From the IMG/VR virus record IMGVR_UViG_3300045988_159790: DNA of 64,000 bases; one strand, 5' to 3'. The stretch is from a virus. Each line of letters starts with the position of its first letter. The stretch's first letter is position 1. Positions 1 to 8,499 of this stretch are shown here, piece after piece. The notes under the pieces are model-generated. The model saw nothing but the letters and a program-made list of their open reading frames with translations, was not told the DNA's origin and ran no database searches. The position numbers were made by a program, and so were the translations under genes.

Positions 1-45
1 CGAACATGCGCCGAAACAAATAATTACCAAAACAATTGTAACAAT
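1..45 (-). CDS. 5' end of leftward gene running off window; hydrophobic N-terminus (MIVTIVLVIICFGAC...)
   Basis: ATG at 45 (minus) with AAAGGGG RBS just upstream; frame open to window edge; minus-strand promoters at 121-149 and ~99-116 upstream. Confidence 0.3.
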   Translation of the reverse strand, partial: MVTIVLVIICFGACS

Positions 46-120
46 CATAAAACTCAACCCCTTTCTATATTTATATGATAACATATTTTTTTATAATTGT
101 CAACTCCTTTCTACATTGTT

Positions 121-149
121 ATTATAACATTTTGTAACTTATTTGTCAA
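121..149 (-). promoter_or_regulatory. minus-strand promoter TTGACA-17-TATAAT (proximal, cassette 1)
   Basis: rc hexamers attata 121-126 and tgtcaa 144-149. Confidence 0.6.
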
Positions 150-164
150 GAACTTTCTGAAAAA

Positions 165-192
165 CTTTGTTTTCAATCTCATTTGTTATCTG
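165..192 (-). promoter_or_regulatory. conserved leader motif CAGATAACAAATGAGATTGAAAACAAAG (minus sense), copy 1
   Basis: Near-identical 27-nt block present once in each cassette between the distal and proximal minus promoters. Confidence 0.5.
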
Positions 193-217
193 CTTTTCTC
201 TGTTCCTTACATTGAAT

Positions 218-246
218 AGTATAATACTTTGAGGCAGATATTGCAA
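218..246 (-). promoter_or_regulatory. minus-strand promoter TTGCAA-17-TATACT (distal, cassette 1)
   Basis: Read from rc. Confidence 0.5.
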
Positions 247-255
247 TAGACAATA

Positions 256-295
256 TGCACAAAGTTATGGGAAAATATTTGTGCAGTTTTATGTG
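256..295. promoter_or_regulatory. operator-like inverted repeat TGCACAAAG-N-TTTGTGCA
   Basis: 8-9 bp arms with ~15-bp spacer containing TTATGGGAAAAT; located 10-50 bp upstream of plus promoter. Confidence 0.4.
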
Positions 296-305
296 CGGAT
301 TTCGC

Positions 306-334
306 TTGACAAAATATCAAAAGTATGGTATAAT
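306..334 (+). promoter_or_regulatory. consensus sigma70-type promoter TTGACA-17-TATAAT (cassette copy 1, convergent to flanking genes)
   Basis: Exact hexamers and 17-bp spacer read from sequence. Confidence 0.7.
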
Positions 335-342
335 GGTAAATA

Positions 343-369
343 CCGGCGAAGCCGGACGCCTTCCAGGCG
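343..369 (+). ncRNA. promoter-proximal twin hairpins A (CCGGC-GAA-GCCGG) and B (CGCCT-TCC-AGGCG), copy 1
   Basis: Begins ~9 nt after -10; stems co-vary between copies. Confidence 0.35.
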
Positions 370-394
370 ATGATTTTCTGACGAAAATTTTAGT

Positions 395-426
395 CATAAC
401 TAAAAAGGTAGGCATTTCTGCCTACC
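395..426 (-). terminator. rho-independent terminator of 439..888 (GGGTAGGCAGAAATGCCTACC + TTTTT on minus)
   Basis: Hairpin plus T-run on minus strand. Confidence 0.7.
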
Positions 427-438
427 CGCAACTGACTA

Positions 439-888
439 TTATATTAAATCTTTAAGTCTTTCAATAATGTCCTGTCTCGCGTCTATCGTGCAACCCTGCG
501 ACCAACCGCGTCTTACCTTTTCATTATCATCAACTAATATCTGAAATCCGCCTAAATGTCTAGTACAATTGGCTTTCGTTGTGCCATACTTGACAAGATG
601 TACTTCATCATAAGGGAAACCTATCTGCTCAAGCCATGCTCTCTTAGCACTGCGAACAGCCGCGTCATATTTTTTATTGCTTTCCTTGCTTAACCAACTT
701 ACAATAACAATCTTCCAACCATTAATCTTGAGTGTATTAATCAAATCGTTTAACATTGTAGGCTCATAAACTGGCTGTGCTATCTCATAAGGGCGAGTGC
801 TACAATTCTTTAAATCTTCAAGCCAACCCTCAACTCCATAGAAATCTGCTATTGTTCCGTCCATATCAAAAACTAAAATTTTATTCAT
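439..888 (-). CDS. HAD-superfamily phosphatase (5'-nucleotidase-like)
   Basis: N-terminal FDMDGTIADF (DxDGT motif I), VIVSW (motif II), LVDDN (motif IV); RBS AGAGGT; intrinsic terminator 395-426 just downstream. Confidence 0.75.
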   Translation of the reverse strand: MNKILVFDMDGTIADFYGVEGWLEDLKNCSTRPYEIAQPVYEPTMLNDLINTLKINGWKIVIVSWLSKESNKKYDAAVRSAKRAWLEQIGFPYDEVHLVKYGTTKANCTRHLGGFQILVDDNEKVRRGWSQGCTIDARQDIIERLKDLI

Positions 889-944
889 ATTATATACCTC
901 TTTTCTTTTTTAGATTGTCGGGGCTTTTCAGCCCCAACTTATTA

Positions 945-1916
945 TTAGCAATATCCCTCAAGCATTAACATTAAGCCCTCAATCTTACTTACATAAGAAT
1001 TATGCGTTGTCTGCTGGCTAAGATAGTTGTTAAATGCTTCAATAACTACTGGAATGGCTTTCGGTCTCTTGTTAATAGCATAATCGTAAGTTGTACCCAG
1101 TTCTCTGAAAGGAAAAGCCTTGAGTATTGGTTCAATCTTGCCTTTCTTTAATGCCTTTGTGAGAATATCAGCTTCTATCTCACTATCACTTAATGCGGTA
1201 TGGTCCTCAGTAAAATCGTATCTCTTATTAAGATACTGGAAGCTAGTTTCTGCTGAAGATTTAAAGAACTCTCCGCTGTTAGTGATTAAGCTATTGTCAA
1301 GACAGAAGTTTCTGTACTTATCAATATTTATTAATCTCTCACAAGCTACTGCCCATAAGTCCACGATAGGAAACTCAAAATCTCTTAACTTAAATACTGG
1401 TTTAAGATACTCTGGATTACTCTCTCTATCATCTTTATATCCCCTAACAATCTTCTCACAACTCATTCTCTGCTTATCTTCCCAGTACTGATAGCCTGGT
1501 GCGTAAAGGTGTGCGATGTACTGTTCTGTAAAAGGAATTGCTTTCTTGTAATCAAATGCGGCATTGTATGCACATGTGCAAGTACACATTTCCAAATCTT
1601 CAAGCAATTCTGCAACCATATCATTCCAGTTGCGAACACCTATCTTACCCTCTGCGAGAAGCTGTTCATAAATAGGGCGCTTATTGCGGTAATAGGCTGT
1701 ATTAAAGATAGCCGGTACAAAGAAAGTTTCCTGAATAAGATAATTAACTCTCTTTACTCTATTGCCCAATCTGTCTGTTATTACCCAGCCTATATCATAA
1801 ACAAGTGGCTTGGCAATAGCAATCTTCTGTTTCTGTTTCGGATTCTTTGCAATCTCATTTGCAAAAGGTAGTGTAGCAGTCTCCGTGTCCAATGTTAAAT
1901 AATACTTCTTTTTCAT
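945..1916 (-). CDS. DEDDh 3'-5' exonuclease (DnaQ-like)
   Basis: Exo I LTLDTETAT, Exo II YNAAFD, Exo III HTALSDSEIEAD motifs; RBS GAGGT; co-transcribed with 439..888 (no promoter in 889-944). Confidence 0.85.
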   Translation of the reverse strand: MKKKYYLTLDTETATLPFANEIAKNPKQKQKIAIAKPLVYDIGWVITDRLGNRVKRVNYLIQETFFVPAIFNTAYYRNKRPIYEQLLAEGKIGVRNWNDMVAELLEDLEMCTCTCAYNAAFDYKKAIPFTEQYIAHLYAPGYQYWEDKQRMSCEKIVRGYKDDRESNPEYLKPVFKLRDFEFPIVDLWAVACERLINIDKYRNFCLDNSLITNSGEFFKSSAETSFQYLNKRYDFTEDHTALSDSEIEADILTKALKKGKIEPILKAFPFRELGTTYDYAINKRPKAIPVVIEAFNNYLSQQTTHNSYVSKIEGLMLMLEGYC

Positions 1917-1955
1917 TTCTAAATGATACCTCTTTTCTTTGATTTCTATGTGTTT

Positions 1956-1985
1956 ATTATAACACCCTTTTTATTATTTTGTCAA
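1956..1985 (-). promoter_or_regulatory. minus-strand promoter TTGACA-18-TATAAT (proximal, cassette 2; drives exonuclease-HAD operon)
   Basis: Read from rc. Confidence 0.6.
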
Positions 1986-2001
1986 GTGGTTTTTTAAAAA
2001 A

Positions 2002-2028
2002 CTTGTTTTCAATCTCGGTTGTTATCTG
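2002..2028 (-). promoter_or_regulatory. conserved leader motif copy 2
   Basis: cttgttttcaatctcggttgttatctg. Confidence 0.5.
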
Positions 2029-2057
2029 TTTTTCTCTGTTCCCCTTGAACAATTATA

Positions 2058-2086
2058 ATTATAGACCTACTACAAGAGAATGTCAA
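2058..2086 (-). promoter_or_regulatory. minus-strand promoter TTGACA-17-TATAAT (distal, cassette 2)
   Basis: Read from rc. Confidence 0.6.
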
Positions 2087-2132
2087 GCATTTTTTAGGAA
2101 AAAATTGTTTTTATTTTAGTACATAAAATCGC

Positions 2133-2161
2133 TTGACAAATTACCGAAAGTATGCTACAAT
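2133..2161 (+). promoter_or_regulatory. promoter TTGACA-17-TACAAT (cassette copy 2)
   Basis: Read from sequence. Confidence 0.65.
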
Positions 2162-2169
2162 GCAAAATT

Positions 2170-2196
2170 CCGGCAAAGCCGGTCGCGCAGAGCGCG
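2170..2196 (+). ncRNA. twin hairpins A (CCGGC-AAA-GCCGG) and B (CGCGC-AGA-GCGCG), copy 2
   Basis: Same position relative to promoter; compensatory stem changes. Confidence 0.35.
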
Positions 2197-2205
2197 GTGA
2201 AAATG

Positions 2206-2232
2206 TAAAGAAAAAGTGCGGATTTCCGCACT
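2206..2232 (-). terminator. rho-independent terminator of 2231..2575
   Basis: AGTGCGGAAATCCGCACT + TTTTTC on minus. Confidence 0.7.
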
Positions 2233-2575
2233 AATTCTGATACAAATTTTTTACTTCTATTACATTTCCGCAACTATCACATTTATAATAATAATAGTTA
2301 GTACCTCCTACACCTCTTCCGCGACTGGAAGCACTAACAAATTCATAATGTCCATTTTCGCATTCTGTACAAATTCCATTATTCCATGTTTTTATATCGC
2401 TATCTGCCTCTTGTATAAGACCAAAAGAGAATAAACCCGCAATTATACTTGTAGTTATAATAAATACTAATATTTTTAACCATTTCTTTTTAGTATTCAT
2501 ATTACTAATTATTATTATACCGAAGAATGAACAAATAAGAAACATTAAACAAAACATAACGATATTTCTAAACAT
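2231..2575 (-). CDS. hypothetical membrane protein, two TM helices plus C-terminal CxxC...CxxC zinc ribbon
   Basis: 114 aa ORF, RBS AAAGGGG, hydrophobic segments, CTEC...CDSC; terminator hairpin at 2206-2232. Confidence 0.5.
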   Translation of the reverse strand: MFRNIVMFCLMFLICSFFGIIIISNMNTKKKWLKILVFIITTSIIAGLFSFGLIQEADSDIKTWNNGICTECENGHYEFVSASSRGRGVGGTNYYYYKCDSCGNVIEVKNLYQN

Positions 2576-2613
2576 ATTTTACCCCTTTCTTGGGGCTGTA
2601 TAGCCCCAATCCT

Positions 2614-3084
2614 TTATAATGTTTTACACTCTGCGACGAAATACTTCGCATGATATTTTTCTACAATAGCCTTTACAACAGTGCTTTGCTTTTGTGTCTC
2701 ACAATAGACATTGAATAACATATACTTCTCAATATCTATGTAGCTATATGGAATCCTTAAAGTGTCTAAAGTTTCCATTAACTCTTTAGCATAATGTGGC
2801 TTCACTGTCATTTCCACTTTCCATAGTTTATCTCTTGTACTCTTTTCTTCAATCAGCTTTACAATGTAAACTCCGATAAGATTACACATAGCTATTATGA
2901 AAGCCTTTAAGAGAAGCGGAAGGTCGCACATCATGTATATTACTACAATAGTATACAAACCATAGGCTAATGCGTTGATTGCGGCGGCAGCTCCTTTTCC
3001 ACACTTGACAGTTACTAAAGATTTTGCTGTCTGAATAATAACATTTACAATGTTAAGAATAATAAATAAAACTAATAAATTCAT
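2614..3084 (-). CDS. hypothetical membrane protein (N-terminal TM helices, soluble C-terminal domain)
   Basis: 156 aa ORF with GAGGT RBS; hydrophobic N-terminal half. Confidence 0.5.
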   Translation of the reverse strand: MNLLVLFIILNIVNVIIQTAKSLVTVKCGKGAAAAINALAYGLYTIVVIYMMCDLPLLLKAFIIAMCNLIGVYIVKLIEEKSTRDKLWKVEMTVKPHYAKELMETLDTLRIPYSYIDIEKYMLFNVYCETQKQSTVVKAIVEKYHAKYFVAECKTL

Positions 3085-3101
3085 AATTAATACCTCTTTT
3101 C

Positions 3102-3323
3102 TTAATATTCTTTTACTTCTCTTACTAAATCAACTGGTTCAGGTGGTACATCTGCTTCTGTAAGGTCTAACCAACAATGTCGCTCAAGCCATCTCAAAAG
3201 AACTAACTGTTCTCCTGTTATGTGTAAATATGTTGGCAGATTATCTTCATCATCATAATTGCCCTCAAGGTCTAATTTCTTAATACTTACATCATATTCA
3301 TCTTTCATAATTGAATACCTCAT
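3102..3323 (-). CDS. hypothetical small acidic protein (probable true start at internal ATG 3308, MKDEYD...)
   Basis: ORF; GAGGT RBS sits 8 nt upstream of the internal ATG. Confidence 0.45.
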   Translation of the reverse strand: MRYSIMKDEYDVSIKKLDLEGNYDDEDNLPTYLHITGEQLVLLRWLERHCWLDLTEADVPPEPVDLVREVKEY

Positions 3324-3350
3324 TTCTATTCTATGTTTTTGTCAAGGATA

Positions 3351-3377
3351 CTTGTTTTCAATCTTATTTGTTATCTG
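3351..3377 (-). promoter_or_regulatory. conserved leader motif copy 3
   Basis: cttgttttcaatcttatttgttatctg. Confidence 0.5.
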
Positions 3378-3395
3378 TTCCCTTGAACAATTATA

Positions 3396-3423
3396 ATTAT
3401 AACAGATTATAAGCAAATGTCAA
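3396..3423 (-). promoter_or_regulatory. minus-strand promoter TTGACA-16-TATAAT (distal, cassette 3)
   Basis: Read from rc. Confidence 0.55.
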
Positions 3424-3467
3424 GCAGTTTTGGGAAAATAAAAAAATTTTTTATTTTGATTTTTCTC

Positions 3468-3496
3468 TTGACAAAAATGCCAAAATGTGATATAAT
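3468..3496 (+). promoter_or_regulatory. promoter TTGACA-17-TATAAT (cassette copy 3)
   Basis: Read from sequence. Confidence 0.7.
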
Positions 3497-3505
3497 ATCA
3501 AAATA

Positions 3506-3541
3506 CCGGCGAAGCCGGACGCCCACAGGGCGGTCTTTTTT
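3506..3541 (+). ncRNA. twin hairpins A and B (CGCCC-ACA-GGGCG) followed by T-run GTCTTTTTT; a ~40-nt promoter-to-terminator unit, copy 3
   Basis: Hairpin B plus T7 forms an intrinsic terminator on plus strand. Confidence 0.4.
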
Positions 3542-3545
3542 GAGC

Positions 3546-3582
3546 ATAAAAAGCTGATGACTATTAGTTTAGTCATCAGCTT
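3546..3582 (-). terminator. rho-independent terminator of 3587..3952
   Basis: AAGCTGATGACTAAACTAATAGTCATCAGCTT + TTTT on minus. Confidence 0.7.
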
Positions 3583-3586
3583 ACAG

Positions 3587-3952
3587 CTACTTTTTCTTTC
3601 TATGCTTTATCAGCGACAGTGAGTATTCATTCTCGCCGATGTTAAAGGTCAACTCTTTCTGCGGATTGGCTATCTGAACATTACTAATCTTGCCATTAAG
3701 TACCATTCCTCCAAGTAGAGTTTTTAAACACCCGATAAAATCAACCTTTTCATCATCGAGTTTTACTTCTCGTGGCTTCCGCGGTTTCTTTTCAGCTTCC
3801 GCACCCTTAACATAGTTTTTTATTCCCTTAGCTTTGATTTCCATTTCCGCCATTTCCATAGCTTCTTCTTTTGTGACTGGTTCTCCGTCTGCTTCACATT
3901 CCTTGAAAATCTTTAAAGCTAACTTCTCTAAGGCTTCTTTTTTACTATCCAT
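3587..3952 (-). CDS. hypothetical protein
   Basis: 121 aa ORF, RBS AGAGGT, rho-independent terminator 3546-3582 immediately downstream. Confidence 0.55.
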   Translation of the reverse strand: MDSKKEALEKLALKIFKECEADGEPVTKEEAMEMAEMEIKAKGIKNYVKGAEAEKKPRKPREVKLDDEKVDFIGCLKTLLGGMVLNGKISNVQIANPQKELTFNIGENEYSLSLIKHRKKK

Positions 3953-3974
3953 GCCCTATACCTCTTTCTTTTAA

Positions 3975-3999
3975 ATTGGGCGGTGTATTTCAACCGCCC
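3975..3999 (-). terminator. GC-rich hairpin after 4009..4386 (weak T-run)
   Basis: GGGCGGTTGAAATACACCGCCC. Confidence 0.35.
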
Positions 4000-4008
4000 G
4001 TCCGCAGA

Positions 4009-4386
4009 TTAGACAAGTGAGAAGATTGCCTTGTCCTTTTCCTCTTCTCTCTTTGCTGTGCCATTGGCAACCATAATCTTGAGAAGTGCAACTACTTTCT
4101 GATTAGAAAGCGCCTGAACCGCTTCATCAGCAGGGAAGTCTTTCATAGCCTTGAGCATAATCTGAGTAGAAGTACCCTTGAAACCGTCAAGGACAACCTT
4201 GAGCTTCTCAACCAGTGCTTCATTAGCCTTAGCTTTCTTATCAGAACCAGCCTTAGCCTTAGCTTTCTTCTTCTCAAGGAGTTCCTTTTCGTGCATAAGA
4301 TAAGTCTTATACATCTCATTGTCCTGTACGAACTCTTCTCCAAGCATAGCCTCGATAACCTGTAACTTTGTAATCTTCTTTTCCAT
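4009..4386 (-). CDS. hypothetical protein (K/E-rich, helical)
   Basis: 125 aa ORF, RBS GAGGT; hairpin 3978-3999 downstream. Confidence 0.5.
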   Translation of the reverse strand: MEKKITKLQVIEAMLGEEFVQDNEMYKTYLMHEKELLEKKKAKAKAGSDKKAKANEALVEKLKVVLDGFKGTSTQIMLKAMKDFPADEAVQALSNQKVVALLKIMVANGTAKREEEKDKAIFSLV

Positions 4387-4498
4387 AATGCAATACCTCG
4401 CTTTTATATAATATTTGAAGCTGATTTTTATTTTTTAATGTGGTCGATTGATGGCTCCCTTTCCTTTCCACATATATATGATAGCACATTTTATTGCG

Positions 4499-4789
4499 CT
4501 AGTCAAGCATAAATAATGTCATTCCGGCTATTTCCTTTTCTACCACTTCTAAAGTATCTAAATGAATAGTGGCTCTGACTATCTTCCAACAGCCAGTTTC
4601 AAACTTGTTGTGTTCATGGCGGCGTGGTAGTCTCTCTGCGGCATGGACTGCACTCTGACAATCTTCAAATACACCATCTATAACATAAGCAACTTGCGTT
4701 CCCATGCAATCTAAGTATCTCATTACTTTTAAGACATACTTAGTCTCTGTTTTTCTTGGTACATGCTTAGTCTCTGTTCCCATAACCAT
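4499..4789 (-). CDS. hypothetical protein
   Basis: 96 aa ORF directly downstream of minus-strand TTGACA-17-TATAAT promoter 4810-4838; RBS GGAAG. Confidence 0.5.
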   Translation of the reverse strand: MVMGTETKHVPRKTETKYVLKVMRYLDCMGTQVAYVIDGVFEDCQSAVHAAERLPRRHEHNKFETGCWKIVRATIHLDTLEVVEKEIAGMTLFMLD

Positions 4790-4809
4790 TACTTCCTTTC
4801 TATACCCTT

Positions 4810-4838
4810 ATTATATCACTTAGGTATCTATTTGTCAA
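4810..4838 (-). promoter_or_regulatory. minus-strand promoter TTGACA-17-TATAAT (proximal, cassette 4)
   Basis: Read from rc. Confidence 0.6.
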
Positions 4839-4860
4839 GCACTTCTTTTTTTTTGTTCGG

Positions 4861-4888
4861 GTTGTTTAGCAATCTCATTTGTTATCTC
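4861..4888 (-). promoter_or_regulatory. conserved leader motif copy 4 (more diverged)
   Basis: gttgtttagcaatctcatttgttatctc. Confidence 0.4.
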
Positions 4889-4901
4889 CCTTACAAGTAT
4901 C

Positions 4902-4929
4902 ATTATAGCAGATTGCCCCAAAATTGCAA
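4902..4929 (-). promoter_or_regulatory. minus-strand promoter TTGCAA-16-TATAAT (distal, cassette 4)
   Basis: Read from rc. Confidence 0.5.
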
Positions 4930-4939
4930 TAGTCAAAAC

Positions 4940-4969
4940 TGCACAAGATTTTGGGATAATGTTTGTGCA
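4940..4969. promoter_or_regulatory. operator-like inverted repeat TGCACAAG-N-TTTGTGCA
   Basis: Same architecture in cassette 4. Confidence 0.4.
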
Positions 4970-4988
4970 ATATGTCAACTTTTTTCCC

Positions 4989-5017
4989 TTGACAAAAATC
5001 CTAAAAGGTGGTATAAT
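4989..5017 (+). promoter_or_regulatory. promoter TTGACA-17-TATAAT (cassette copy 4)
   Basis: Read from sequence. Confidence 0.7.
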
Positions 5018-5026
5018 AGGCAAATT

Positions 5027-5050
5027 CCGGCGGGGCCGGACGTGCTCCGC
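5027..5050 (+). ncRNA. hairpin A (CCGGC-GGG-GCCGG) and degenerate hairpin B, copy 4
   Basis: Same spacing from -10. Confidence 0.3.
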
Positions 5051-5059
5051 CCGGTGCGA

Positions 5060-5200
5060 TTATTCTAACTTAAATTAGTTTGAACTAACAAGTGTTTTAT
5101 AAGTCTAACTTAAGTTAGCTTAATCTAACTACAGTTAGTTTGAATTAACAAGGATTAGCTTAATCTAACTAGAGTTAGTTTGAATTAACAACTGTTAAAA
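5060..5200. repeat. tandem ~40-bp iterons (2 near-identical plus 2 degenerate) each carrying palindrome CTAACT-N2-3-AGTTAG followed by TTTGAATTAACAA
   Basis: agcttaatctaactacagttagtttgaattaacaagg at 5117 and 5157; degenerate copies at 5060 and 5098. Confidence 0.7.
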
Positions 5201-5299
5201 ATTGCTAACTTTACTTTTATAAAACGAACTTCAATTCGTCTTCTCTAACTTTAATTTTATACAGCTAATTACAGATATTTGTAGCTAATTAAAATTAGA

Positions 5300-5335
5300 G
5301 AACGCAAATCGAATTTTGGAGGGTTGCCGCTACTT
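5300..5335 (-). terminator. hairpin GGGTTGCC-N7-GGCAACCC overlapping stop of 5330..5614 (weak T-run)
   Basis: 8-bp stem. Confidence 0.35.
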
Positions 5336-5614
5336 GGCAACCCAAACCTTTAATATTATGTCGTCATATTTAGACGACTGGTCATTAATGTCAAATAACA
5401 TCTTGACATTTTGACCCTCCGCGATATCACAGCCATCATATTCCCAGATATCGCCTGCCCTATCAGCAATCCGCACAAATCCATTATCATTGCTGATTAC
5501 CTTACCCTCTCTTGTACAGTGACCCTCAAGGTATATCGCGCCTAAGAATAATATTCCTAAAACTAAACCCAGGGCTATTCTTTTAACTATTGCTTTACTA
5601 TTGTTTTTTCTCAT
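5330..5614 (-). CDS. hypothetical secreted/membrane-anchored protein
   Basis: 94 aa ORF, N-terminal basic stretch plus hydrophobic helix (signal/anchor-like), RBS GAGGT. Confidence 0.5.
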   Translation of the reverse strand: MRKNNSKAIVKRIALGLVLGILFLGAIYLEGHCTREGKVISNDNGFVRIADRAGDIWEYDGCDIAEGQNVKMLFDINDQSSKYDDIILKVWVAK

Positions 5615-5675
5615 TTTAAATACCTCATTTCATTTTTATTTTTATATGTGGGCTTGGCTTCCCAAGCCCTAATCA

Positions 5676-5984
5676 TTAACAATATATCAAACTCATGTCT
5701 GCCCACTTGAGAATAGATATCTGTGCGCATTGTCTACCAAGTGCCAAAGCGTCTCTTTTTGTAGACACTCTGTGGCTCTTGTCTACAAAATAAACGCCAT
5801 TCTCAAGCCAAAGTCCGCAATTACCACCGTATGCTCTAACGGCTTTAATTGCTTCCTCGGGAGTTGTAACCATTACTCCCTCGGTGGCTACTTGATAACC
5901 ACTCTTGTATGTGATTATCTTACCATTCTTGAGTGTTAAACCGCCACACTCCTCAATCTTTCTTATTGTCCTAATGTTTATCAT
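5676..5984 (-). CDS. hypothetical protein
   Basis: 102 aa ORF with RBS GTGAGGT. Confidence 0.5.
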   Translation of the reverse strand: MINIRTIRKIEECGGLTLKNGKIITYKSGYQVATEGVMVTTPEEAIKAVRAYGGNCGLWLENGVYFVDKSHRVSTKRDALALGRQCAQISILKWADMSLIYC

Positions 5985-6026
5985 ACTTATAATACCTCAC
6001 TTTCTTTTCTCTTGGATAGTCCCGGC

Positions 6027-6356
6027 TTAGTAGCCGAGACTTATTAACTTGTCTATGTAAGAGTTCAGAACTGCTACAAACTGCTTGTTTGTCATCTTTC
6101 TAAACCTCTCAAGTGTAAAGTCGATAGGCGGAAGTTCTACACCCTCAACCTTTATGATGTACACCTGCGGACACGCTTTAATTGCATTGACTGCATGGAA
6201 GATGTTCACATCTTCGTATATATAAGTTGTGTCCTCATAGTTTGCAAATCTCATTGAGAACTTCTCTTTTGTATACATATTTAATTTCTTCATAGTAACC
6301 TCTTTTCTGTCTCTCTCTTGAAAGACTATCAATTTTATTTTACGGTTTTCGTTCAC
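6027..6356 (-). CDS. hypothetical protein
   Basis: 109 aa ORF with RBS AGAGGT. Confidence 0.5.
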   Translation of the reverse strand: MNENRKIKLIVFQERDRKEVTMKKLNMYTKEKFSMRFANYEDTTYIYEDVNIFHAVNAIKACPQVYIIKVEGVELPPIDFTLERFRKMTNKQFVAVLNSYIDKLISLGY

Positions 6357-6583
6357 CGCACCATTATAATATCATACCCCGTTTTCAATGTCAACACTTT
6401 TTTCAAAAATTTTTAAAAATTTTTTTATGCCCTATTTTCAAGGCTTTTCACGCACCCAAACACATGCACCAGACGATGATGTGACTACTTTTTTAGTCAG
6501 CAATAGTGACGATGTGTTTACTTTTGTAGTCAAATAGTCATCAATTATGGGATATGATTAGTCTTGTAGTCACACTCAATGTC

Positions 6584-6652
6584 GATTTGAAAAGTTTAAA
6601 TAACTAGTCAAATAGGCAAAATGCGACACGCTTTATGGGAGGAAGCGTGCCG
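6584..6652 (+). repeat. conserved ~70-bp element with hairpin whose loop is UAUGGGAGG (copy A)
   Basis: gatttgaaaagtttaaataactagtcaaataggcaaaatgcgacacgctttatgggaggaagcgtgccg; stem cacgctt/aagcgtg. Confidence 0.5.
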
Positions 6653-6660
6653 TTCAAAAT

Positions 6661-6780
6661 AACTAACCAAAGTTAGTCAAGCCTAACAATAGTTAGACTA
6701 AACTAATTAGATTTCGGGAAGACTAACTAGAGTTAGTTTGAATTAACAAGCATTAAGCTTGACTAACTCAAGTTAGTCTT
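6661..6780. repeat. second cluster of four CTAAC(T)-N-(A)GTTAG palindromes including one full iteron copy (gactaactagagttagtttgaattaacaag)
   Basis: actaac-caaa-gttagt, ctaac-aata-gttag, gactaact-ag-agttag, gactaact-ca-agttagtc. Confidence 0.65.
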
Positions 6781-6790
6781 TCCTAAACTA

Positions 6791-6823
6791 GATGAGTGCG
6801 GATTAGCGGTTTCCGCACTCATC
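6791..6823. repeat. perfect inverted repeat with 11-12 bp arms (GATGAGTGCGG ... CCGCACTCATC)
   Basis: Read from sequence; no adjacent T-run on either strand. Confidence 0.6.
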
Positions 6824-6979
6824 TAATAGACTAGACATGAAGCCGATGATGAACTCCATAAGACTAAGAAGTTCGTCATCAGATATGACTATGTGCGTAA
6901 GCACAAAGTCAACTTTCTGATTGACTTCTGTGACAGTGGAGCATTGCTCCACCATCACTATAGCTTCTAAAAAACTCAT
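6803..6979 (-). CDS. small hypothetical protein (58 aa, MSFLEAIVMVEQCSTVTEV...), not in ORF track
   Basis: Strong RBS GGGGAGGTGG; ATG overlaps the TGA of upstream gene 6976..7461 in ATGA arrangement (translational coupling); stop codon lies in loop of perfect 12-bp-arm palindrome 6791-6823. Confidence 0.45.
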   Translation of the reverse strand: MSFLEAIVMVEQCSTVTEVNQKVDFVLTHIVISDDELLSLMEFIIGFMSSLLDECGNR

Positions 6980-7461
6980 TCTACCACCTCCCCAGTTTTT
7001 TCATTTACTAAGCTACATCTAAGACCTAGTATTTTGCAAGCTTTAGCTGTATTATAGAATACTGATAATGCTGTGCCATAACTTTCAATCCCTGTAAAGA
7101 TTGGAGTGTTGCCATTATAAACTCCGTAGGTTACTTCCTGGAGTTCAAACTCCGCGATTGCGGAGTTTACTTGATTCTGCATTTCCTTAAGTAATGCTCC
7201 ACCGAAAAGCTCCTGAAGCTGATTGCCTTGAGTGAGACAGTCAAGTTCCATCTCTAACTTTGCCCAACACTCTGCTGAATCCTCATAAATAAACCCCTTG
7301 AGGATTATCTTGCAATCTACAGCATTAACTACACTGTGGATTGTATTGATTATCATAAGAGCATTATCTGCTACTGTATCAACACAGAGCCAGTTGCCCT
7401 CTTTAACTTCTTTACCTATTATTGACCTCATTGTTGCAATCAGCTTGTTTCCTTTTATCAT
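6976..7461 (-). CDS. hypothetical protein (ORF track start 7491 is TTG; ATG at 7461 with GGAAAGAGGT RBS preferred)
   Basis: ORF, RBS-supported internal ATG (MIKGNKL...). Confidence 0.5.
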   Translation of the reverse strand: MIKGNKLIATMRSIIGKEVKEGNWLCVDTVADNALMIINTIHSVVNAVDCKIILKGFIYEDSAECWAKLEMELDCLTQGNQLQELFGGALLKEMQNQVNSAIAEFELQEVTYGVYNGNTPIFTGIESYGTALSVFYNTAKACKILGLRCSLVNEKTGEVVE

Positions 7462-7573
7462 AATATACCTCTTTCCGCCCTTGCTTCTCAAGGGCTATCT
7501 AATTTATTTTGCCGCCATTGCCTTGCGACACCATTATAGTACACCCACCGCGCACTCATTGCAATATGCAAAA

Positions 7574-7603
7574 TGCACAAAGTTTGACAGATGTTTTTGT
7601 GCA
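7574..7603. promoter_or_regulatory. operator-like inverted repeat TGCACAAAG-N-TTTGTGCA (third copy, outside a full cassette)
   Basis: Preceded by same ATTGCAATA context as copies 1 and 4. Confidence 0.4.
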
Positions 7604-7741
7604 ATTTGTACAAAAGAGAATGCACCAAGATGGAAGTACCGAACATTTGTTCACCGCTTTAGTCAGCTCCGAGAATAGTTTAGTTTTTTAGACGCATGAG
7701 TTGTGGGAATTTTTATTTGACTACTTGATTAGACTTTTAGA

Positions 7742-7810
7742 ATTTGAAATGTTTAAATGACTAGAAATATAGTAAAATGCGGAGCGCTTTATGGGAGGAA
7801 GCGCGCCGAT
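7742..7810 (+). repeat. conserved ~70-bp element copy B with compensatory stem change (gcgctt/aagcgc)
   Basis: aatttgaaatgtttaaatgactagaaatatagtaaaatgcggagcgctttatgggaggaagcgcgccg. Confidence 0.5.
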
Positions 7811-7987
7811 GATTTGAAAATGTACGGGACTACAGTCTCAGTGTATGCTGATTATTTTTTGATAAAACTACAGACCATACATAAAAGGTGGTCATCAGTT
7901 TAAAATAAAAAAATTTTCTCTTTTTACCCGGGGATATATTATGGGAAAATGAAAAATTAATTCGATGAAATCATATTTAGCTGGTAC

Positions 7988-8050
7988 ATTCACACACCCC
8001 AAATTTTTTGAAATTTAAAAAACGATTCACACACCAAAAATTTTTTCGTT
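7988..8050. repeat. direct repeat ATTCACACACC(C/A)AAAATTTTTT x2 (37-bp period)
   Basis: Read from sequence. Confidence 0.5.
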
Positions 8051-8065
8051 TTTTAAAATACGAGA

Positions 8066-8371
8066 TTAATTCCGAACAACTCTTCCATGTTTCCCTGTTT
8101 GCTTATATGCCATAAACAGATTATTTAATTTAGTATTATTTCCATCCCCTAAGTTAATTAATAGGAAATCACAATTTTTTATAATATCTGAAGTTTCCGC
8201 ATTTTTTATATAGCGGGTCGGCGCGCCAACCGAATCAGCCCATTTTGCGGCAATGCTATCTTTATTTGTTACTAGCATATAAAATAAATAGCATTGACTT
8301 TCCGCAATTAACTTCTGCATTTCCGCATCAATATCTTCAATTTTATTAAAACCAATCGCCGCGACTATCAT
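8066..8371 (-). CDS. hypothetical protein, first gene of leftward arm at the divergent promoter region
   Basis: 101 aa ORF, RBS AAAGGAGTG, minus-strand TTGAAA-17-TATAAT promoter 8394-8422. Confidence 0.5.
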   Translation of the reverse strand: MIVAAIGFNKIEDIDAEMQKLIAESQCYLFYMLVTNKDSIAAKWADSVGAPTRYIKNAETSDIIKNCDFLLINLGDGNNTKLNNLFMAYKQTGKHGRVVRN

Positions 8372-8393
8372 TTTTATTCACTCCTTTATAATA

Positions 8394-8422
8394 ATTATAT
8401 CAAAAATTTTTTTTCTTTTCAA
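8394..8422 (-). promoter_or_regulatory. minus-strand promoter TTGAAA-17-TATAAT for 8066..8371
   Basis: Read from rc; divergent from plus promoter 8440-8468. Confidence 0.55.
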
Positions 8423-8439
8423 ATTATCTACTTTTGTCC

Positions 8440-8468
8440 TTGACTTGTGAAAATTTTTTTGGTATAAT
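8440..8468 (+). promoter_or_regulatory. promoter TTGACT-17-TATAAT for rightward late/structural operon
   Basis: Read from sequence. Confidence 0.65.
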
Positions 8469-8499
8469 TATTATAAGAATAAGAAATAAGGAGAGACTA

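Follow-up and report, generated by a model that had tools for sequence, protein, structure and literature searches.

Phased arrays of an operator-like unit in the early regions of uncultured gut phages as candidate sites for a host DtxR-family ferrous-iron repressor

The early region of a large phage carries two arrays of a short palindromic unit, GTTAG-N6-CTAAC, which is also found in bacterial promoters for ferrous-iron uptake (feoA/feoB). Judged from the sequences, these arrays are probably promoter-less tandem operators of the host DtxR-family repressor that controls feoAB, and binding of this repressor is predicted. They are read as promoter-less host operators because they do not overlap promoters, because they hold several-fold more units than a host promoter does, and because their copy number changes in whole units.

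The window (the whole stretch of DNA that was analysed, 64,000 nucleotides of the IMG/VR virus record IMGVR_UViG_3300045988_159790) is part of a large phage, with roughly 85 kb of genome beyond it. From 8.4 kb on, the + strand encodes the portal, the large terminase, a sigma-like protein, a 3110-aa protein and a 1812-aa protein, and at 57-64 kb the - strand encodes RuvC, dUTPase, the anaerobic ribonucleotide reductase NrdD and a polymerase. The portal is 25-38% identical to those of SPbeta-like phages, of large siphophages of Enterococcus and Bacillus, and of the gut phage phAss-1. The first 8.4 kb are occupied by small genes on the - strand, with a perfect TTGACA-17-TATAAT promoter ahead of each operon, and this early region encodes a HAD 5'-nucleotidase together with a 323-aa protein in which DEDD-exonuclease-like motifs were recognized by eye. 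Two independent contigs of close relatives begin at an identical point, about 3.5 kb left of the window. A fixed genome end is proposed on this basis, and the leftward early genes would then make up the first ~12 kb, or ~8% of the genome. A BLAST search of GenBank phages with the array intergenic region and its 6-kb surroundings gave no match.

The repeats that a preliminary description had placed at 5060-5200 are real, as the rows of Tandem Repeats Finder, the palindromes and the shuffled controls agree. They had been described as 40-bp repeats. The repeats themselves stand, but when the sequence is laid out in rows of 20 the true period proves to be 20 bp without a single indel, and the feature is larger than the segment described. 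The search for further copies across the window, which the same description had proposed, uncovered a second array that was missing from it. The two arrays and one divergent unit are as follows.

5054-5309, no strand: array 1, 13 units with an exact 20-bp period; units with at most one mismatch start at 5074, 5114, 5134, 5154, 5174 and 5194
6652-6787, no strand: array 2, 7 units in the same 20-bp register; units with at most one mismatch start at 6672, 6692, 6732 and 6772
5225-5238, no strand: unit variant CGAACTTCAATTCG, which differs at one position from the LexA box of Firmicutes, CGAAC-N4-GTTCG

Both arrays repeat GTTAG-N6-CTAAC with 4 bp after it. Of the 13 units of array 1, whose right half is degenerate from the unit at 5214 on, 6 have at most one mismatch, and so do 4 of the 7 units of array 2. 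The second array is paralogous to the first: a 28-nt block at 6723-6750 equals 5165-5192 at 27 of 28 positions, and the two regions align lengthwise through a common ATAGGCAAA motif, a GC hairpin preceding the array, and this block. Tandem Repeats Finder reports 5115-5191 with a period of 40, 1.9 copies and 97% matches, and overlapping rows with periods of 20 and 60 across 5060-5268. Palindromes of the form CTAACT-NN-AGTTAG lie at 5105, 5125 and 5165, and at 5065 there is a further one that has a single mismatch. With at most one mismatch allowed, CTAAC-N4-GTTAG occurs 8 times in the 64-kb window against 1.75 expected, a count that was reached in 0 of 100 shuffles, and all eight matches fall within two clusters that correspond to arrays 1 and 2; no further array copy was found in the window. 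The non-coding, AT-rich setting given in the preliminary description was correct, with no coding sequence in the array 1 region and a GC content of 0.25 in array 1 versus 0.31 for the window.

Both arrays occupy gaps between early transcription units. Array 1 fills the space from the end of the operon for the 94-, 102- and 109-aa proteins to the promoter at 4838-4810, and array 2 the space from the end of the 171/58-aa operon to the promoter at 6394-6366. The surrounding features are listed here.

4009-4386, - strand: 125-aa protein that combines a long helix and, at the C-terminus, a winged-helix domain; the sole phage-encoded candidate binder identified, and a weak one
4810-4838, - strand: perfect promoter of a leftward operon (96-aa protein, 125-aa winged-helix protein, 121-aa protein), 227 bp from array 1 and overlapped by no unit
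4989-5017, + strand: perfect sigma-70-type promoter (TTGACA-17-TGgTATAAT) facing array 1
5027-5053, + strand: two tandem 5-bp GC hairpins (CCGGC-ggg-GCCGG, a, CGTGC-tcc-GCCCG) in the gap between this promoter and array 1
5321-5343, no strand: GC hairpin GGGTTGCC-N7-GGCAACCC, which closes array 1 and overlaps the 3' end of the convergent 94-aa gene
5330-6356, - strand: genes for three small proteins of 94 aa (membrane-anchored), 102 aa and 109 aa, flanked by the arrays
6366-6394, - strand: promoter of the three-gene operon between the arrays, ~270 bp from array 2 and overlapped by no unit
6623-6653, + strand: GC hairpin that abuts array 2 on the left and follows the shared motif ATAGGCAAA
6790-6824, no strand: 13-bp hairpin, which closes array 2 and overlaps the 3' end of the 58-aa gene (6803-6979, - strand)

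Each array is bracketed by GC hairpins, array 1 by those at 5027-5053 and 5321-5343 and array 2 by those at 6623-6653 and 6790-6824. The hairpin at 6623-6653 keeps its pairing in the close relative L003 through a two-sided change from A-T to G-C, along with one change from C-G to T-G and the replacement of a mismatch lower in the stem by a G-C pair. The pair of hairpins at 5027-5053 could be either 5' hairpins or an attenuator of the + strand transcript, or a terminator for transcription of the - strand. The combination of promoter and double hairpin recurs at each operon boundary; three further boundaries of the window and one of a relative have it without an array, so that this module belongs to operon boundaries rather than to the arrays.

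The absence of the repeats from related phages, which the preliminary description had named as an outcome that would speak against it, is not what is found, as relatives do carry arrays. The exact two-unit pattern occurs in 29 stretches of IMG/VR, about 19 IMG/VR contigs (13-164 kb) have phased arrays of at least three units, and many related, uncultured Firmicutes phages of the gut have phased arrays of 3 to 27 units in their early region. The longest, with 18-27 good units, belong to the loci L021, L016, L007 and L112. Some loci have several separate arrays, and a count of phased runs gives at least four within ~7 kb in L013. Over 134 arrays, the step from one unit to its neighbour is a multiple of 20 bp in 544 of 640 cases. 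Both arrays recur at matching positions in two close relatives of 147 and 150 kb, and strict matches to the pattern in the 150-kb contig occur at these two positions only. Array 1 of the close relative L005 is longer by exactly one 20-bp unit, which indicates that copy number shifts in whole units. Many of the array contigs have genes in common with the window, including the HAD nucleotidase, the sigma-like protein and the terminase. Near arrays, the most frequently encoded families are the HAD nucleotidase, the 125-aa protein (4009-4386), the 121-aa protein (3587-3952), the 323-aa protein and the 102-aa protein (5676-5984), the last of which has homologues 0.3-3 kb from arrays in at least eight other contigs. 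When a long array from a relative was used as the query, no match was found among 72,556 plasmids, and among GenBank phages the query matched a single record, an uncultured phage from faeces. The cultured phages and plasmids that were searched have no such arrays. Array-bearing phage-like contigs have been binned with genomes of Oscillospiraceae, Eubacterium, Erysipelotrichaceae and Saccharibacteria.

What kind of molecule reads the unit can be approached from its variation. A logo of 329 unique 26-nt windows gives RA-CTAACT-NN-AGTTAG-TY with a 20-bp period. Since a lone GTTAG opens and a lone CTAAC closes most arrays, the natural unit is GTTAG-N6-CTAAC. From the column compositions, Watson-Crick pairs between the arms of the palindrome occur at about the expected frequency for all seven arm pairs, and where both arms have changed, the changes are mostly non-complementary. 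The half-sites vary independently, and this favours a dimeric protein that reads half-sites on duplex DNA over a hairpin. The preliminary description had taken the array for sites of a dimeric DNA-binding protein, and the independence of the half-sites points the same way as to such predicted binding. Reading the unit as a hairpin or as RNA was dismissed on this arm-covariation count, in which compensatory changes are not in evidence. Two other candidates were considered and rejected. The unit resembles the LexA box CGAAC-N4-GTTCG and might have been a LexA decoy, yet relatives have true LexA boxes beside their arrays, which means that the host LexA consensus differs from the unit. A late-promoter or sigma-factor sink was rejected as well, the half-sites having no enrichment elsewhere in the window.

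The same unit occurs in bacterial chromosomes. When one genome per bacterial species was searched with the two-unit pattern, 22 stretches were returned, some of them phage-like contigs and others chromosomal. The chromosomal units, usually in three copies with a 20-bp period, are situated in feoA/feoB promoters. Eight feoA/feoB loci with the unit were collected (L037, L042, L045, L061, L066, L078, L091 and L095), and in five of them (L042, L061, L066, L078 and L095) the adjacent gene matches the DtxR-family regulator of L042 by tblastn, with Pfam Fe_dep_repress domains confirmed in the regulators of L042, L061 and L066. These and other bacterial loci with the unit are arranged as follows.

L042 (Spirochaetales): three units separating feoA/feoB from a 125-aa gene in divergent orientation, the product of which has the Pfam domains Fe_dep_repress and Fe_dep_repr_C
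L061: two perfect units, regulator P0336 (NCBI 'Ruminococcaceae bacterium') divergent from feoA-feoA-feoB
L078 and L095 (from a three-unit metagenome scan): DtxR-like gene, TTGACA, 5 nt, three units with a 20-bp period, feoA, feoB
L091: TTGACA, 5 nt, three units, feoA and feoB as in L078 and L095, with no regulator gene in the stretch examined
L037 (Lachnospiraceae): units overlapping a TTGACA...TATACT promoter immediately 5' of feoA-feoA-feoB
L045 (Lachnospiraceae): units 5' of feoA/feoB
L066: one unit, 54 bp upstream of feoA
L062 and L064: units upstream of the regulator gene
L034 (Succinivibrio): units upstream of genes for a radical-SAM protein and a TonB-dependent receptor

In the host feo promoters, the first unit fills the spacer and its cTAACtt serves as the -10 element, a layout that is the standard design of a repressed promoter. 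Nine loci with homologues of the regulator were examined. All three that adjoin feoAB (L042, L061 and L066) have the unit in the shared intergenic region, where a match with at most one mismatch is expected by chance ~0.008 times per 250 bp. The unit was not found in four of the nine, namely L060, L063 and L067, which have other gene contexts, and L065, in which the sequence is cut 60 nt upstream. The homologues carry the NCBI names Ruminococcaceae bacterium, Ruminococcus sp., Eubacterium sp., Clostridia bacterium and Bacillota bacterium, and the Eubacterium assembly GCA_017539165.1 holds both an array contig and a regulator gene with its operator (L062) in one MAG. Host and phage units also agree in their flank preferences: GTTAG tends to follow an A, and CTAAC to precede a T (r = 0.55 for the unanchored positions). 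The TTAG...CTAA orientation of the half-sites is that of the IdeR box (TTAGGTTAGGCTAACCTAA; PMC4598388) and of the Haloferax TroR box (TTTAGGC-N3-CCTAAA; PMC10783522), though the spacing is unlike that of the 19-bp IdeR box.

An array of operators or repressor sites had been among the options of the preliminary description, and the match between the unit and the operator of host feo promoters argues for that option. The binder it had suggested, a small early phage protein, is in turn weakly supported, the unit being an operator in host feoAB promoters beside a DtxR-family gene. The two-unit pattern was also seen upstream of Xre-type genes (Saccharibacteria) and of a GH32 gene (Tessaracoccus), so other proteins may read similar sites. 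As a separate observation, the GC-rich metagenome matches L077, L092 and L119 are telomere-like perfect satellites.

Phage arrays and host promoters differ in how the unit is placed. None of the 339 strong promoters in phage loci overlaps a unit, and the arrangement of TTGACA, 5 nt and a unit is confined to four host feo loci and L071, with no example in a locus identified as phage. The phage arrays are built of operator units but are not classical operators, as they do not overlap -35 and -10 elements in the way that the host units do. A search of the window and of part of the array loci returned no DtxR homologue. L071 itself has the promoter-operator layout but no recognizable iron gene.

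Taken together with the matching site, these features suggest a model in which the arrays would be bound by a protein of the host. The repressor would be a two-domain DtxR-family protein of ~125 aa that controls feoAB in gut anaerobes; its binding to the phage arrays is a step that we infer from the matching site, and its presence in the host of this phage is likewise presumed. One repressor dimer would occupy each unit, and the 20-bp period, which copies the spacing of the two to four units in a host promoter, would place successive dimers on nearly one helix face. The phage units have no promoter of their own, lying between early transcription units and bracketed by hairpins, and with 6 to 27 good units per array they exceed a host promoter several-fold. 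The most likely role of such arrays would be that of a high-capacity platform for the iron-loaded host repressor.

What the platform would do can be pictured in two ways, both of them conjectural. As a sink, the arrays would drain free repressor and so switch on host Fe2+ uptake as phage DNA accumulates. As a roadblock, they would impose an iron-dependent stop on a short + strand transcript or on read-through between early units. The sink fits the copy numbers of the arrays and the absence of regulated promoters, and the roadblock fits the position between hairpins as well as the sink does. The perfect promoter that points into array 1 would be odd for a passive sink, but the same module stands at boundaries without arrays. 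A sponge in the full sense, in which hundreds to thousands of sites sequester the repressor, feoAB is turned on and more iron becomes available for phage replication, is a tentative proposal that we regard as possible but doubtful. The iron would then serve, for example, the anaerobic ribonucleotide reductase system of the phage; its NrdD is a possible motive for iron supply and not evidence of it.

Other explanations have to be weighed against binding by a host repressor. One is that the arrays are operators for the phage-encoded 125-aa winged-helix protein (4009-4386), perhaps together with its 121-aa partner, and act in early shut-off or insulation. This is unlikely, as the co-occurrence of the 125-aa family with arrays is mostly explicable by synteny and breaks down at a distance: no arrays lie within 10 kb in loci with 125-aa homologues of 30-36% identity (L054-L058), nor in L059, which has the 121-aa partner at 59% identity and a neighbouring 131-aa gene. 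Moreover, the putative recognition helix LSNQK is conserved in 1566 cluster representatives of the family, whereas arrays occur in one phage clade, and the unit of the phage is that of a host operator. Among at least 20 early proteins, scans with Pfam and PHROGs found no DNA-binding family, two small acidic protein families of distant array loci have no homologue in the window, and relatives of known structure were not detected for the 102-aa neighbour protein. A binder encoded in the roughly 85 kb of phage genome beyond the window is nonetheless conceivable. An iteron-type replication origin, which the preliminary description had put forward, would account for tandem 20-bp direct repeats in non-coding, slightly AT-rich DNA, and it could draw on the four DnaA boxes directly after the array of L021 and on a minimum of the cumulative GC skew within 2-3 kb of the arrays. 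We consider it very unlikely nonetheless. An iteron origin has its direct repeats of about 17-22 bp in a single cluster, at or within the initiator gene, but there are two arrays in the window and several per locus in relatives, no adjacent initiator gene is present among the scanned ORFs, the window has no DnaA-box cluster, and L021 is alone in having DnaA boxes beside an array. The replication genes are on the other arm at 57-64 kb, far from the gaps between early transcription units in which the arrays lie, and what is repeated is a palindromic operator that host feo promoters have as well. The GC-skew analysis that had been proposed as a check lends the origin no support, since the minimum at ~8.4 kb coincides with the switch in gene orientation. 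The partition site of the same description, here a centromere-like site of the parC/parS type in a plasmid-like prophage, fares no better and is highly improbable. Repeats phased to one helical face and the presence of several arrays do recall the type II parC and pSM19035 parS arrays (PMC5016525), but no ParA, ParM, TubZ or centromere-binding gene was found in the scanned ORFs of the window and the scanned flanks of array loci, the plasmid search was negative, the arrays are not upstream of any operon open to their regulation, and the unit is that of a host feo operator. The absence of recognized initiator, ParA, ParM and TubZ genes applies to part of the ORFs of the window and to a few ORFs of other array loci.

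The least credible alternative is a structured non-coding RNA, with the promoter at 4989 transcribing a row of small hairpins that acts as an RNA decoy. A perfect promoter and a 5' GC hairpin do read into array 1, a hairpin stands at its far end, a consensus promoter faces an array in several relatives, and the fold z-scores are -7 and -9. However, low folding energy is a trivial outcome of palindromes, the palindrome arms are without covariation, the promoter-hairpin module is also found where there are no arrays, and many arrays lack a facing promoter, while some are read from the left as well as from the right. Rfam gave no match at the gathering score, the hits with E up to 1 being chance-level eukaryotic miRNA models, and an ARAGORN tRNA scan found nothing relevant. 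The arrays might also be a cis-acting structural signal of stepwise infection, comparable to the pre-early repeats or the injection-stop signal of T5, a possibility to which we attach very little weight. It would suit the suggested fixed genome end with leftward early genes in the first ~12 kb, the early HAD 5'-nucleotidase and the 323-aa protein with exonuclease-like motifs, and the conserved repeats with host DnaA boxes in the T5 pre-early region (bioRxiv 10.1101/866236). This is an analogy only, and the arrays are at several internal positions rather than at one boundary; such a signal would moreover not compete with binding by the host repressor, since both could hold at once.

If the arrays are sites for the host repressor, the nearest relatives among known systems would be the DtxR and IdeR boxes, including the tox operator of corynephage beta. 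These boxes share the inverted TTAG...CTAA half-sites and are read by a metal-loaded dimeric repressor, and in corynephage beta a phage genome has a site for the iron repressor of its host, as is proposed here. The classical DtxR/IdeR box is a single 19-bp site over the promoter that it regulates, in contrast to a unit that is repeated 6 to 27 times without promoter overlap, and the presumed regulator is a short two-domain DtxR homologue of Clostridia and Spirochaetes, unlike classical DtxR or IdeR. In the Fur titration assay, which uses multicopy Fur boxes, and at datA, which acts on DnaA, extra sites lower the amount of free protein and de-repress its regulon. The former is a laboratory construct and the latter a chromosomal locus, whereas the arrays are viral and their role as a sink is a proposal.

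Tandem short repeats with cooperative binding are known from type II parC (pSK41, R1) and from the omega/parS system of pSM19035, in which the protein forms a continuous helical array and several arrays per replicon are possible (PMC5016525). The likeness lies in the tandem repeats and in the number of arrays. Those arrays are in par promoters and their ribbon-helix-helix protein is encoded alongside, unlike the phage arrays, which have no par genes in the scanned ORFs and no promoter overlap. The untranslated repeat regions of the T5 pre-early segment carry host DnaA boxes (bioRxiv 10.1101/866236) and resemble the present arrays as conserved non-coding repeats between host-takeover genes of strong expression at the left genome end, with sites for a host protein that are predicted in our case. 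The host protein, the repeat architecture and the phage lineage differ. SPBRE of SPbeta, finally, is a single 15-bp promoter site bound by the phage-encoded recombinase-like repressor MrpR (PMC10516654). It is a recurrent, intergenic repressor site in a large siphophage that is distantly related (portal ~25-38% identity), but it is neither a tandem array nor a host operator.

A natural viral array of decoy sites for a host metal regulator was not described in the literature searched. Host metal-repressor sites on phages are known as single operators at regulated genes, and, as far as was searched in the literature and sequence collections, long promoter-less phased arrays are not known. If the proposed reading is true, a virus would use arrays of decoy sites, and not a protein, to manipulate or sense a metal regulator of its host, and in the sponge version the host would be reprogrammed by non-coding viral DNA alone. 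For the bacteria, it would predict the operator of a short DtxR-family repressor (GTTAG-N6-CTAAC, usually three copies at 20 bp, the first of which is the -10 element), with feoAB as the core regulon of that repressor, widespread in gut Clostridia and Spirochaetes. For the phages, the arrays would provide a sequence marker that ties uncultured gut phages to hosts with this DtxR-family regulator.

Two close relatives give a hint of where the left end of the genome may lie. Their independent contigs, L052 and L053 (147,336 and 150,460 bp), share one start point roughly 3.5 kb to the left of window position 1. The shared start suggests that the genome has a fixed end and that leftward early genes make up its first ~12 kb (~8%). 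Two of the genes in this left-end early region, one for a HAD 5'-nucleotidase and one for a protein of 323 aa that shows DEDD-exonuclease-like motifs, recall the pre-early region of T5.

Features of the early region of the window
54-149, 46-bp tandem duplication holding two successive leftward consensus promoters (75-103 and 121-149)
439-888, HAD 5'-nucleotidase gene
945-1916, gene for the 323-aa protein
306-365, + strand promoter, promoter-hairpin module
2133-2200, + strand promoter, promoter-hairpin module
3468-3542, + strand promoter, promoter-hairpin module
4989-5053, + strand promoter, promoter-hairpin module

The module listed here recurs in every early inter-operon gap and consists of a + strand promoter followed, after about 8 nt, by two tandem 5-bp GC hairpins; a further copy is found in the relative L052 (9301-9383, - strand). 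The promoter is a perfect or near-perfect match to the consensus, the first hairpin reads CCGGC-nnn-GCCGG and the second CGCCY-nnn-RGGCG, with covariation of the second stem across copies and a T run after the hairpins in one of them. The module could represent a family of tiny RNAs of ~35-90 nt or, if read on the - strand, a terminator.

Several small genes lie near the arrays of operator-like repeats. Two of them (4009-4386 and 3587-3952) form a neighbouring, co-conserved pair. The 125-aa product of the first contains both a long helix and a winged helix; it belongs to a large family (1566 representatives) that matches no Pfam family above threshold. The second encodes a 121-aa protein with 381 homologues, which has a helical hairpin and a small alpha-beta domain along with a linker that is basic and disordered. 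For a third protein of 102 aa (5676-5984), no family was detectable. Its homologues lie within 0.3-3 kb of arrays in at least eight other contigs and immediately adjoin the array in L001, L029 and L035, and the protein may be functionally linked to the arrays.

Sites resembling those of other host regulators are also found beside the arrays. In several relatives (L001, L006, L012, L025, L028, L029 and L035), perfect Firmicutes LexA boxes (CGAAC-N4-GTTCG) are found next to arrays and directly after strong promoters. The window itself has just two copies with one mismatch each (5225-5238 and 7640-7653). Some members of the array-bearing phage clade may be under SOS control. Next to the longest array, in L021, there are repeats of AGTCAAAgaaAGTCAAA, which resembles the CtsR operator, and four perfect, evenly spaced DnaA boxes immediately upstream of a promoter (sites at 4150-4300 and 4865-4909 of that contig). 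Array-type regions thus hold further host-regulator sites.

Other repeats occur within the clade and beyond it. Between the promoter at 6394 and the second array, TAGTCA(A/C) occurs five or six times in the window (6490-6615), with some of the copies paired (gtagtcaaatagtcatc, ttagtcttgtagtcac), and L003, a close relative, conserves them. Different repeat types are present in the early regions of phages that are less closely related:

L059 1003-1266, several copies of the hairpin AAACCCAGTATTCATGCGGGTTT
L056 9661-9722, five tandem 12-bp palindromes TTGACATGTCAA, directly upstream of a gene homologous to that of the 125-aa winged-helix protein

Look-alike pentamers also occur in bacteria. In Saccharibacteria (L030, L044, L048 and L051), CTAAC-N4-GTTAG pairs stand immediately upstream of an Xre-type HTH gene, an assignment confirmed by Pfam for L030 only. 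In Patescibacteria, identical pentamers form GC-extended stems capped by loops of UUCG or CGAA (loci for these and others: L031, L033, L039 and L041). Both kinds of element are probably unrelated, with the pentamers in common by chance.

Perfect TTGACA-17-TATAAT promoters are extremely dense in the early region, with nearly one per small gene and many arranged as divergent pairs. This holds for window 1-8470 and for L012, L013, L021, L029, L035, L036, L086 and L103, with L086 carrying 26 within 12 kb. Such a promoter-dense early region is of the host-takeover style and depends on the host sigma-70-type polymerase.
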